Source: Escherichia coli (lineage in GTDB: Bacteria; Pseudomonadota; Gammaproteobacteria; Enterobacterales; Enterobacteriaceae). From it: 64,000 nucleotides of DNA. The stretch is taken from assembly GCF_009931435.1 (NCBI RefSeq), contig NZ_CP043414.1. One strand, given 5' to 3'. Both the position numbers and the translations under genes were made by a program. The notes beneath the pieces are model-generated. The model searched no databases, was not told the DNA's origin, and saw only the letters and a list, made by a program, of their open reading frames with translations. Positions within the stretch are counted from its first letter, which is position 1. The number at the start of each line of letters is the position of its first letter. This document shows, piece after piece, positions 1 through 60,235 of the stretch.

Positions 1-2858
<2,858 letters not shown>

Positions 2859-8470: not shown

Positions 8471-9820
8471 TTAGATAGCCCAGCCGCCCGCATAGAAGGT
8501 CACCAGCGCCACGGCGATAACGACCGTACCGATGTTCAACTTGCGCCATTCGCCGGAAACCAGACGACCAATCACCAGAGTCGCGAAGCCGATCATGATG
8601 CCTGTTACGATGTTACAGGTCAGCACGATGAATACCGCCGTAACCAGACCCGCCATCGCATCAACAAAATCAGCAAAGTCGATTTTCGCCACGTTGCTCA
8701 GCATCAGCAGGCCAACGTACATCAGCGCTGGAGCCGTTGCGTACCCAGGAACGAGGTAAGAGAGTGGAGAGAGGAACAGAATCAGCAGGAACAACACGCC
8801 AACGGTGATAGCCGTCAGACCGGTTTTTCCGCCCGCCGCTGTACCCGCCGCAGACTCGATGTATACCGCTGCCGGTGCTGCCCCCACCAGACCAGAGAAA
8901 ACACTGCTCATGGAGTCGGTGGTCAGTGCTTTCCCGCCGTCGATAATTTGCCCGTCTTTATCCAGCAGGTTTGCCTGGCCCGCGACGGCCCGGATGGTTC
9001 CGGTGGCATCGAAAACAGCAGTCATCACCAGTGCCAGCACGCTCGGCAGAACCACAGGGTTCAGCGCGCCCATAATGTCCAGGCTGCCAATCAGTGAATT
9101 GCCGTTTTCATCGCTCAATGAAGGCATGGCGAAAACGCCAGAGAAGTGGACGTTAGGATCGAAGATCAAACCGACAATTGAGATACCGATAATGGTCAGC
9201 AGAATGCCACCAGGGACTTTCAGTTTTTCCAGGCCGATGATCACCGCCAGACCTACCAGTGACATAATCACCGGGAAGGTCGCGAAATCACCCAGCGCAA
9301 CGGGCAGACCATCAAGCGGGTTTTTAATCACCAGACCGACACCATTAGCGGCAATGAGCAGCAGGAAAAGACCGATACCGATCCCCGTGCCGTGCGCCAC
9401 ACCGTGCGGCAAGTTGCGCAAAATCCAGCTACGAATACCCGTGGCAGAAATTATCGTAAACAGCACACCCATCAGGAACACGGCACCCAGCGCGACAGGT
9501 ACGCTAATATGTTGCCCCAGCACCAGACTGAATGCGGTAAACGCCGTCAGGGAGATGGCGCAACCAATCGCCAACGGCAGATTAGCCCACAGACCCATCA
9601 CGATAGAACCGAGTCCGGCAACCAGACAGGTCGCAACGAAAACTGCCGCAGGCGGGAAGCCCGCTTTACCCAACATGCCTGGAACGACGATAACCGAGTA
9701 GACCATCGCCAGAAACGTTGTTAACCCGGCAACCACTTCCTGACGGACAGTGCTTCCACGTTGTGAAATTTTAAACCAGGCGTCGAGTGAACCGCCGGTA
9801 CGCGCTGATGGCGTAGACAT
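8471..9820 (-). CDS. ghxP: Guanine/hypoxanthine permease (NCS2/AzgA-like), 449 aa
   Basis: 449-aa membrane protein [50 protein letters not shown]...; synteny (K-12 yjcD/ghxP). Confidence 0.9.
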
Positions 9821-10234
9821 AAGAAAACATCCCCTGAGAGTTTAATTTTCGTCAAGATGCGTGGCGGACAATCCCCTGCCAGCGAAACGTTATCTTCCTG
9901 CTCCAGGTTTGCGACAAATTGGTGCGTCGCAAAAACGCAAACGTTTAGCTCCGCGCATACAAAACGGGTGGTAAAAAAAGCAAACGATTATCCGGCGATC
10001 ATAGCGGCTTTTTCAACCGAAGTTTGCTGCTTTTTTCTCTTTTATTGTCTTGACGATGAAAAACCAGGCAATTGATGCGCAAACGTTATCGTCGATGCGC
10101 AAGATTGCAGCGTTATCGAACCGTATACCGTTCAGGATTGCGATAAAAAATCGTCTGAGATGACAAAAATATTGCGGCTAAAAAGTGTACTTTTACACTG
10201 GCGAAGAAACGCCGGTAACATACAATTAAAGCAT

Positions 10235-10375
10235 CAACACCAACCGGAACCTCCACCACGTGCTCGAATGAGGTGTGTTGACGTCGGGGGAAACCCTCCT
10301 GTGTACCAGCGGGATAGAGAGAAAGACAAAGACCGGAAAACAAACTAAAGCGCCCTTGTGGCGCTTTAGTTTTGT
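10235..10375 (+). ncRNA. ryjA: Candidate small RNA at the K-12 ryjA position (placement by synteny only)
   Basis: K-12 carries a ~140-nt sRNA between soxR and ghxP, convergent with soxR. Here a hairpin plus T-run at 10347-10375 could end a plus-strand transcript. Sequence not verified against ryjA. Confidence 0.25.
10347..10367. terminator. Hairpin at soxR 3' end (bidirectional terminator candidate)
   Basis: aaagcgcc-cttgt-ggcgcttt with T-rich flanks on both strands, overlapping the soxR stop codon. Confidence 0.5.
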
Positions 10376-10830
10376 TCATCTTCCAGCAAGCGTGCGCCGG
10401 TACCTTCTTCTCCTAATCGGTCGCCCGGGTTACGCAACGGGCAATCACTGCGCGAAAGGCAGCCACAACCAATACATCCATCCAGTTCGTCACGCAGCGC
10501 CACTAAGGTATGAATGCGCCGATCCAACTCTTCTCGCCATTGGGACGAAAGCTGTTTCCACTCTTTCGCACTTAACGTATGCCCTTCGGGCAACACGCCA
10601 AATGCTTCACGAATGGTCGCCAGCGGAATGCCAATACGCTGAGCAATTTTGATGATTGCGACATATCGCAACACATCACGTTTATATCGCCGCTGATTGC
10701 CACTATTACGGATACTGCTAATCAACCCTTTGCTTTCATAGAAATGCAGCGCCGATACCGCCACACCGCTGCGTTTTGCCACTTCGCCGGGGGTTAGCAG
10801 CGCTTTAATGCGGGGTAATTTCTTTTCCAT
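10366..10830 (-). CDS. soxR: Redox-sensitive transcriptional activator SoxR (MerR family, [2Fe-2S]), 154 aa
   Basis: [37 protein letters not shown]...; C-terminal cysteine cluster [17 protein letters not shown]. Confidence 0.95.
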
Positions 10831-10841
10831 AAATCGCTTTA

Positions 10842-10859
10842 CCTCAAGTTAACTTGAGG
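10842..10859. promoter_or_regulatory. SoxR-binding palindrome in the soxS promoter
   Basis: Perfect 18-bp palindrome cctcaagttaacttgagg in the 85-bp soxR/soxS divergent spacer, at the position of the SoxR box in K-12. Confidence 0.85.
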
Positions 10860-10915: not shown

Positions 10916-11239
10916 ATGTCCCATCAGAAAATTATTCAGGATCTTATCGCATGGATTGACGAGCATATTGACCAGCCGCTTAACATTGATGTCGTCGCAA
11001 AAAAATCAGGCTATTCAAAGTGGTACTTACAGCGGATGTTCCGCACGGTGACGCATCAGACACTTGGTGATTACATTCGCCAACGCCGCCTGTTACTGGC
11101 CGCCGTTGAGTTGCGCACCACCGAGCGTCCGATTTTTGATATCGCAATGGACCTTGGTTATGTCTCGCAGCAGACTTTTTCCCGCGTTTTCCGTCGGCAG
11201 TTTGATCGCACTCCCAGCGATTATCGCCACCGCCTGTAG
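10916..11239 (+). CDS. soxS: Superoxide-response regulator SoxS (AraC/XylS family), 107 aa
   Basis: MSHQKIIQDLIAWIDEHIDQPLNIDVVAKKSGYSKWYLQRMFRTVTHQTLGDYIRQRRLLLAAVELRTTERPIFDIAMDLGYVSQQTFSRVFRRQFDRTPSDYRHRL. Confidence 0.95.
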   Translation: MSHQKIIQDLIAWIDEHIDQPLNIDVVAKKSGYSKWYLQRMFRTVTHQTLGDYIRQRRLLLAAVELRTTERPIFDIAMDLGYVSQQTFSRVFRRQFDRTPSDYRHRL

Positions 11240-57554: not shown

Positions 57555-57961
57555 AACAATTTCCCTTCATTGAATGAATGGAGATTTACCCAAAAACATT
57601 TCGGGCGGGATCGAGTATACACAACTAAAGCATGCGAATTACGGCGTGGGGAATTAGTGATGGGGTTTTAAGATAATTGGAATGAATATCAAATATAAGT
57701 TTCAACTTATATATAAATAATATTTAAAATCAAAAATTTAAAACAAAATCAAAAATAATTAACCTACGTATTTTCCGAAATCAATCATGATTAAAAATCT
57801 ATTTTAGGATTAACCTCACGGTATGATTTTCGTTAAATCACAGACAAGGGGATTTATCTGATAAAACAATGCCGACTTATAGTCGGCATTGTTATTAAGG
57901 TTATTTAATCAATCCTGCTATGTATTAATTGCCGAATATGATGTACATATCGGCATCGACC

Positions 57962-58040
<79 letters not shown>

Positions 58041-59944: not shown

Positions 59945-60235
59945 CTGCGCTAGCGCAGGCCAGAAGAGGCGCGTTGCCCAAGTAACGGTGTTGGAGGAGC
60001 CAGTCCTGTGATAACACCTGAGGGGGTGCATCGCCGAGGTGATTGAACGGCTGGCCACGTTCATCATCGGCTACAGGGGCTGAATCCCCTGGGTTGTCAC
60101 CAGAAGCGTTCGCAGTCGGGCGTTTCGCAAGTGGTGGAGCACTTCTGGGTGAAAATAGTAGCGAAGTATCGCTCTGCGCCCACCCGTCTTCCGCTCTTCC
60201 CTTGTGCCAAGGCTGAAAATGGATCCCCTGACACG
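59945..60235 (+). promoter_or_regulatory. Lysine riboswitch (LYS element / L box) in the lysC leader
   Basis: About 300-nt structured leader with conserved segments as I recall them for the lysC riboswitch (…ccagaagaggcgcgttgcccaagtaacggtgttggaggagccag…ggtgcatcgccgaggtgattgaacggctgg…); immediately upstream of lysC. Confidence 0.8.

Follow-up and report, generated by a model that had tools for sequence, protein, structure and literature searches.

The window, that is, the whole 64,000-nucleotide stretch of the Escherichia coli contig NZ_CP043414.1 that was analyzed, contains the genes ghxP and soxR on the minus strand and the gene soxS, which diverges from soxR, on the plus strand (Table 1). 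According to the ORF table, the soxR-ghxP spacer (9821–10365) is 545 bp long, equal to the spacer in K-12 and in agreement with an earlier note on this DNA, which gave its length as more than 500 bp. A plus-strand segment with similarity to a known small RNA was found at the soxR end of this spacer. The RNA ends at position 10373 and the stop codon of soxR occupies 10366–10368 on the opposite strand; the two are therefore convergent, as the same note had proposed.

Table 1. Coordinates of the genes, signals and RNA segments at the ghxP-ryjA-soxR locus (positions of the window).
Feature	Position	Strand	Basis
ghxP ORF	8471–9820	−	ORF table
Conserved A-tract (−53 to −49; consensus aaaaa)	10180–10184	+	Anchored upstream alignment
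Putative −35 element CTGGCG (−35 to −30; consensus CTGGCR)	10198–10203	+	Conserved at fixed distance, 99 sequences
Predicted −10 element TACAAT (−12 to −7; consensus TAnAnT)	10221–10226	+	Anchored upstream alignment
TAA after the −10 element (−6 to −4)	10227–10229	+	Anchored upstream alignment
ryjA/sraL sRNA gene, 141 nt	10233–10373	+	Rfam RF01408 match and identity with K-12 ryjA
5′ stem-loop domain (helix 10234–10240 with 10275–10281)	10234–10281	+	Rfam consensus structure, covariation
Conserved segment CCGGAACCUCC with anti-Shine-Dalgarno-like CCUCC	10244–10254	+	Upper-case in the Rfam consensus
Segment complementary to the tig leader (sRNA nt 24–34)	10256–10266	+	7 + 3 bp with E. coli tig
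Internal hairpin (10297–10302 with 10309–10314)	10297–10314	+	Covariation
A/G-rich linker AUAGAGAGAAAGACAAAGACCGGAAAACA, mostly single-stranded	10315–10341	+	Conservation in the 100-sequence alignment
Shared bidirectional intrinsic terminator, 13-bp stem, then U-tail	10342–10373	both	Terminator scan, inverted repeat, covariation
Last 8 bases of soxR (end of Asn codon and UAA stop 10366–10368)	10366–10373	−	ORF table, sequence
soxR ORF	10366–10830	−	ORF table
soxS ORF, diverging from soxR	10916–11239	+	ORF table

According to the Rfam scan of the whole window, the sraL family (RF01408) covers the segment over the full length of the model (positions 1–142 of 142), with a score of 153.3 bits against a gathering score of 39 (E 1.1e-34). 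Alignment with the K-12 MG1655 genome showed that all 141 bases are the same as those of the ncRNA ryjA (b4459), which is annotated at 4277926–4278066, is flanked by soxR and ghxP and overlaps the 3′ end of soxR. The gene order of K-12, pdeC-soxS-soxR-ryjA-ghxP, is that of the window, and the orientation relative to soxR and ghxP, the 8-nt overlap with soxR and the terminator are also shared. The earlier note had suspected a small RNA at the ryjA position and had suggested a comparison with K-12 ryjA and an Rfam scan; both analyses returned this RNA, the first with complete identity and the second as a full-length sraL (that is, ryjA) match of 153 bits. The place given there (10235–10375) was right, with an offset of 2 nt from the true span shown in Table 1.

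The K-12 locus differs from that of the window only upstream of the RNA. Four substitutions (at 10178, 10187, 10212 and 10217) were detected in a 251-bp alignment, all of them ahead of the RNA start and none in the conserved −35 and −10 hexamers; their restriction to the upstream flank is consistent with the RNA being under stronger constraint. The ryjA stretch was found in 5420 of the 5426 complete E. coli genomes. Knowledge of RyjA/SraL dates back to 2001, and the feature is an ordinary one for E. coli, with nothing new in it.

In the listed RefSeq records of E. coli (H1–H12), soxR was the sole annotation under the stretch, and ryjA is apparently unannotated in these PGAP genomes, so that it is easy to overlook the sRNA in strains other than K-12. 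The practical value of the identification is thus one of annotation, and it has little weight as a discovery.

In search of promoter elements, 99 upstream sequences were anchored at the 5′ end of the RNA. A predicted promoter of the form CTGGCG-17-TACAAT-TAA (10198–10229) is conserved at a constant distance from this end, with a spacer of 17 bp between the two hexamers, the first of which probably serves as the −35 element. The A-tract upstream of it is possibly UP-element-like. By these features, ryjA has its own promoter of the sigma-S type, with a −10 element followed by TAA and a degenerate −35 element, conserved across genera. The sraL promoter has been described with the same features, which are typical of RpoS-dependent promoters (PMC3753932). 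A generic sigma-70 scan proposed another pair of hexamers (TTTACA-18-TAACAT, 10192–10221). This candidate was rejected: transcription from it would start approximately 5–6 nt upstream of 10233, the conservation seen across genera falls on the other promoter, and K-12 has a different sequence at the second hexamer.

At the other end of the RNA, the terminator scan and the inverted-repeat search both indicated a perfect stem of 13 bp (10342–10354 with 10360–10372; 100% complementarity) and a 5-nt loop. The hairpin at 10347–10367 (AAAGCGCCCTTGTGGCGCTTT) that had been pointed out earlier is real and represents the G+C-rich core of this longer stem. Its T-rich flanks were likewise observed on both strands, TTTTGTTCATCTT following the hairpin on the plus strand and GUUUUCCGGUCUUUGUCUUU on the minus strand. 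In the 100-sequence alignment described below, 96% of the cells in the terminator columns are paired, and two covarying pairs are located in the outer stem. The fold of the minus strand has a z of −4.0, and none of 200 shuffles was equally good. The hairpin holds the UAA stop codon of soxR (reverse complement of 10366–10368) within its stem and can fold on both strands, which bears out the suggestion of a bidirectional terminator common to the sRNA and soxR. As in K-12, the 3′ end of ryjA overlaps the final 8 bases of soxR.

Homologues were sought in a species-representative genome collection using a pattern of two exact words, CCGGAACCTCC and GGGGGAAACCC, separated by a gap of 20–40 nt. As a result, 100 loci were obtained. 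The scan sampled only loci with both exact words, and more divergent homologues lie outside this sample; for the same reason, the invariance of the CCGGAACCTCC and GGGGGAAACCC columns in the 100-sequence alignment (A2) is imposed by the search. A homologue detectable in blastn was present in 99 of the 100 loci, belonging to approximately 25 enterobacterial genera. The remaining locus, from an archaeal MAG, is a chance match, and Rfam finds no sraL there. When the most divergent genera were tested, Rfam called sraL at identical boundaries in all ten (Shimwellia, Buttiauxella, Kosakonia, Klebsiella, Phytobacter, Atlantibacter, Cedecea, Salmonella, Citrobacter and one more).

The genomic surroundings are conserved together with the RNA. 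A convergent soxR gene lies just downstream in 98 of the 99 homologous loci, and ghxP is located upstream wherever the locus extends far enough. Relative to soxR, the sRNA 3′ end lies between −30 (inside the gene) and +511 nt; the most frequent values are 0/+1 and, in the Escherichia group, −8. The coupling to soxR is thus nearly universal and geometrically loose. In Citrobacter sedlakii (locus L033), the sraL homologue (1602–1742, minus strand) is retained and no soxR is found within 1.6 kb downstream. An ORF for a 303-aa LysR-type regulator (698–1609, plus strand) converges on the sRNA in the place of soxR and likewise overlaps the 3′ end of the sRNA by approximately 8 nt. In addition, typical Enterobacteriaceae ghxP-sraL-soxR loci were detected on contigs whose labels assign them to a Bacillota MAG, a Chryseobacterium isolate and “Proteobacteria bacterium” MAGs (L049, L075, L008 and L011), and the sRNA of L049 is 100% identical to that of E. 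coli; contamination or mis-binning of these assemblies is likely.

The functionally studied orthologue, SraL of Salmonella enterica (L059), is approximately 92% identical over its full length and scores 164.5 bits in Rfam. It has in common with the RNA of the window the promoter features, the terminator, the convergent soxR gene and the GUGCUC core of the tig-pairing segment. Small differences are located in the loop of the 5′ domain and in the hairpin loop. The upstream neighbor in Salmonella is a putative glutathione S-transferase gene (PMC3753932), whereas ghxP directly precedes the RNA in E. coli, and the aligned C-terminus of the soxR product in locus L059 ends approximately 35 nt beyond the sRNA 3′ end, without an overlap.

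The Rfam consensus structure was mapped onto the 100-sequence alignment. Overall, 94.7% of the cells form standard pairs, compared with 39–54% when the partners are slid by 1–3 columns. Double-sided changes were found in 10 pairs, and none of 500 shuffles reached the observed values. Compensatory double changes occur in four of the seven pairs of the 5′ helix (95.9% of cells paired), and compensatory changes occur in four of the six pairs of the internal hairpin (94.7%). The minimum free energy of the whole RNA, calculated from the single sequence, is unremarkable (z = −1.69), so that the structure is argued from covariation and not from energy. The fold consisting of the 5′ stem-loop domain, the internal hairpin and the terminator is supported by covariation.

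Two segments stand out by their conservation. The invariance of CCGGAACCUCC in the alignment was imposed by the search pattern; in the Rfam consensus the segment is highly conserved, and it may serve as a seed. The search pattern placed no constraint on the A/G-rich linker, where the motif GAAAGAC..AAGACCGG is invariant or nearly so and GAAAGACAAAGACCGG is invariant. The exception to its single-stranded character is 10325–10327, the 3′ arm of a never-varying 3-bp Rfam helix with 10283–10285. The linker is a candidate Hfq-contact or seed region, and the features of RyjA that bear on Hfq are this invariant linker and the terminal U-run.

SraL/RyjA has been described as an RNA of approximately 140 nt with stationary-phase induction. 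Its transcription in Salmonella is RpoS-dependent, and the binding of RpoS at the sraL promoter in vivo was demonstrated by ChIP; the transcription of RyjA in E. coli is summarized in the same work (PMC3753932). The RNA is stabilized by Hfq (PMC3753932), and the Rfam description also gives Hfq association. In E. coli RNA-seq data, RyjA is seen as a full-length transcript carrying a poly(A) tail, and a pcnB mutant accumulates it strongly (PMC5389530). The 5′ part of Salmonella SraL pairs just upstream of the Shine-Dalgarno sequence of tig (encoding trigger factor) in two segments of 7 and 3 bp, and the resulting repression was validated with compensatory mutations (PMC3753932). In the accounts given in PMC6582626 and PMC12360218 of Silva 2019, SraL of Salmonella also base-pairs with the leader of rho across a putative rut site and shields the rho mRNA from premature Rho-dependent termination. 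SdsR (RyeB), which is likewise broadly conserved in enterobacteria, is similar to RyjA in being transcribed by sigma-S, induced in stationary phase, associated with Hfq and acting as a base-pairing repressor (PMC3753932), but it is unrelated in sequence, locus and targets and stands outside the sraL family.

E. coli carries the tig site. The leader of the E. coli gene contains CGAGCAC-U-GUG at −29 to −19, and RyjA nt 24–34 can pair with it through 7 + 3 bp around a one-base bulge (−16.4 kcal/mol), which fits the published description (PMC3753932). Taken by itself, this pairing is not significant, as the 7-mer match is found in 35% of shuffles, and the local tig duplex of the 5′ segment (nt 8–36) was equalled in 67 of 500 shuffles. 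The best local duplex with the rho leader, formed by sRNA nt 80–106 and the C/U-rich positions −152 to −118 (−18.8 kcal/mol), was equalled in 194 of 500. Since the local duplexes of nt 8–36 and of the A/G-rich linker (nt 80–110) are no better than those of shuffles or random pieces of the window, no target pairing is claimed from the sequence alone. The full-length RNAduplex comparisons with the E. coli tig and rho leaders were uninformative (z of −0.07 and +0.22, respectively), because unconstrained long duplexes dominate them.

Taken together, these data indicate that 10233–10373 of the plus strand is the gene for RyjA (SraL), a trans-acting, Hfq-associated 141-nt sRNA of Enterobacteriaceae, with a probability of roughly 93%. 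Following the literature, sigma-S RNA polymerase would transcribe RyjA as cells enter stationary phase, Hfq would stabilize the RNA, and poly(A) polymerase would initiate its turnover. By analogy with Salmonella, its 5′ part would pair upstream of the tig Shine-Dalgarno sequence and lower the synthesis of trigger factor, and its binding to the rho leader over the putative rut site would spare the rho mRNA premature Rho-dependent termination. The regulation of tig and rho presumably operates in this E. coli strain too, given that the RNA is identical to that of K-12 and the tig site is present.

Could the locus be explained by soxR itself? An explanation without any independent RNA would reduce the feature to the 3′ UTR and terminator of soxR, leaving the rest of the spacer as promoter DNA of ghxP. 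The hairpin does hold the soxR stop codon, folds well on the minus strand and is followed by a U-rich tail, and most non-K-12 RefSeq annotations of E. coli show soxR alone under the stretch. However, such an explanation does not account for 100 conserved plus-strand bases upstream of the hairpin with two covarying helices, nor for the fixed-distance promoter, the full-length Rfam match, the K-12 ncRNA annotation and the published transcript, and it is judged hardly credible. Scarcely more probable is a small mRNA or dual-function RNA. An AUG-initiated ORF for a 26-aa peptide (MRCVDVGGNPPVYQRDREKDKDRKTN; AUG at 10268, UAA at 10346–10348) does lie entirely within the RNA, but its AUG is present in only 14 of the 100 aligned sequences and is replaced elsewhere by CUG, UUG or CCG, and no Shine-Dalgarno sequence precedes the AUG at 10268. 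Indels of 1–2 nt break the frame between genera; the longest ORFs of the homologues have other start sites and unrelated peptide products, and 19 homologues lack an ORF altogether. As the ORF is not conserved, its coding role was rejected.

A different objection concerns the mode of action rather than the existence of the RNA. RyjA could act primarily in cis on soxR, through the 3′ overlap of approximately 40 nt or through interference by convergent transcription, connecting stationary phase with SoxRS, with trans regulation as a secondary effect. The tail-to-tail linkage in 98 of 99 loci, with the soxR stop usually within 1–2 bases of the sRNA 3′ end, speaks for this, and SraL has been termed an antisense sRNA next to soxR (PMC3753932). 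Yet the overlap consists essentially of the terminator hairpin, whose arms pair with each other in either RNA, and the strongest conservation within the sRNA is seen outside the overlap. The distance between the sRNA and soxR is variable, Citrobacter sedlakii keeps the sRNA with a LysR-type gene in place of soxR, and the trans targets were validated by compensatory mutation. A primary role in cis is thus considered improbable, if somewhat less so than a coding role, and RyjA is regarded as a trans-acting sRNA.

With the RNA identified as RyjA, it is conceivable, though unlikely, that the main conserved function is one that has not been described, exerted either on conserved targets via CCGGAACCUCC/GAAAGACAAAGACCGG or as an effect in cis on the soxR 3′ end that would couple sigma-S to the superoxide response. 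According to the alignment, the tig-pairing segment belongs to the most poorly conserved portions of the RNA: other sequence stands in its place in Klebsiella/Raoultella, and Kosakonia/Phytobacter have lost it. The ancestral or main target may therefore be a gene other than tig. The stretches of greatest invariance do not coincide with this experimentally defined segment, which suggests that the conserved target set is incompletely known. Such a reading leaves modest room for new targets or a role in cis, and the verdict on the gene is unchanged by it.

Several other features were noted in the window. In the upstream region of ghxP, a cluster of PurR-operator-like motifs extends over 9883–10120. 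Its best members, ACGCAAACGTTTAGCT (9935–9950) and GCGCAAACGTTATCGT (10077–10092), are two of the three matches to ACGCAAACGTTTGCGT with at most three mismatches in the 64-kb window, where the mean expected by chance is 0.47. Weaker copies were seen at 9883–9897, 9980–9990 and approximately 10108–10120. Judged by these motifs, the cluster fits control of the guanine/hypoxanthine transporter gene ghxP by the purine repressor. A perfect 18-bp palindrome, CCTCAAGTTAACTTGAGG, is located at 10842–10859 in the divergent soxR-soxS region, presumably the expected place of the SoxR operator of the soxS promoter.

The Rfam scan additionally identified a lysine riboswitch aptamer (RF00168) at 59956–60152 of the plus strand (99.5 bits) and the enterobacterial sRNA STnc430 (RF02053) at 57751–57900 of the same strand (72.6 bits; gathering score, 47). 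On the minus strand, naRNA4 (RF02564) was matched three times with scores of 73–80 bits, at 2908–2979, 46336–46406 and 57966–58037; these matches have the form of paired hairpins resembling REP elements.
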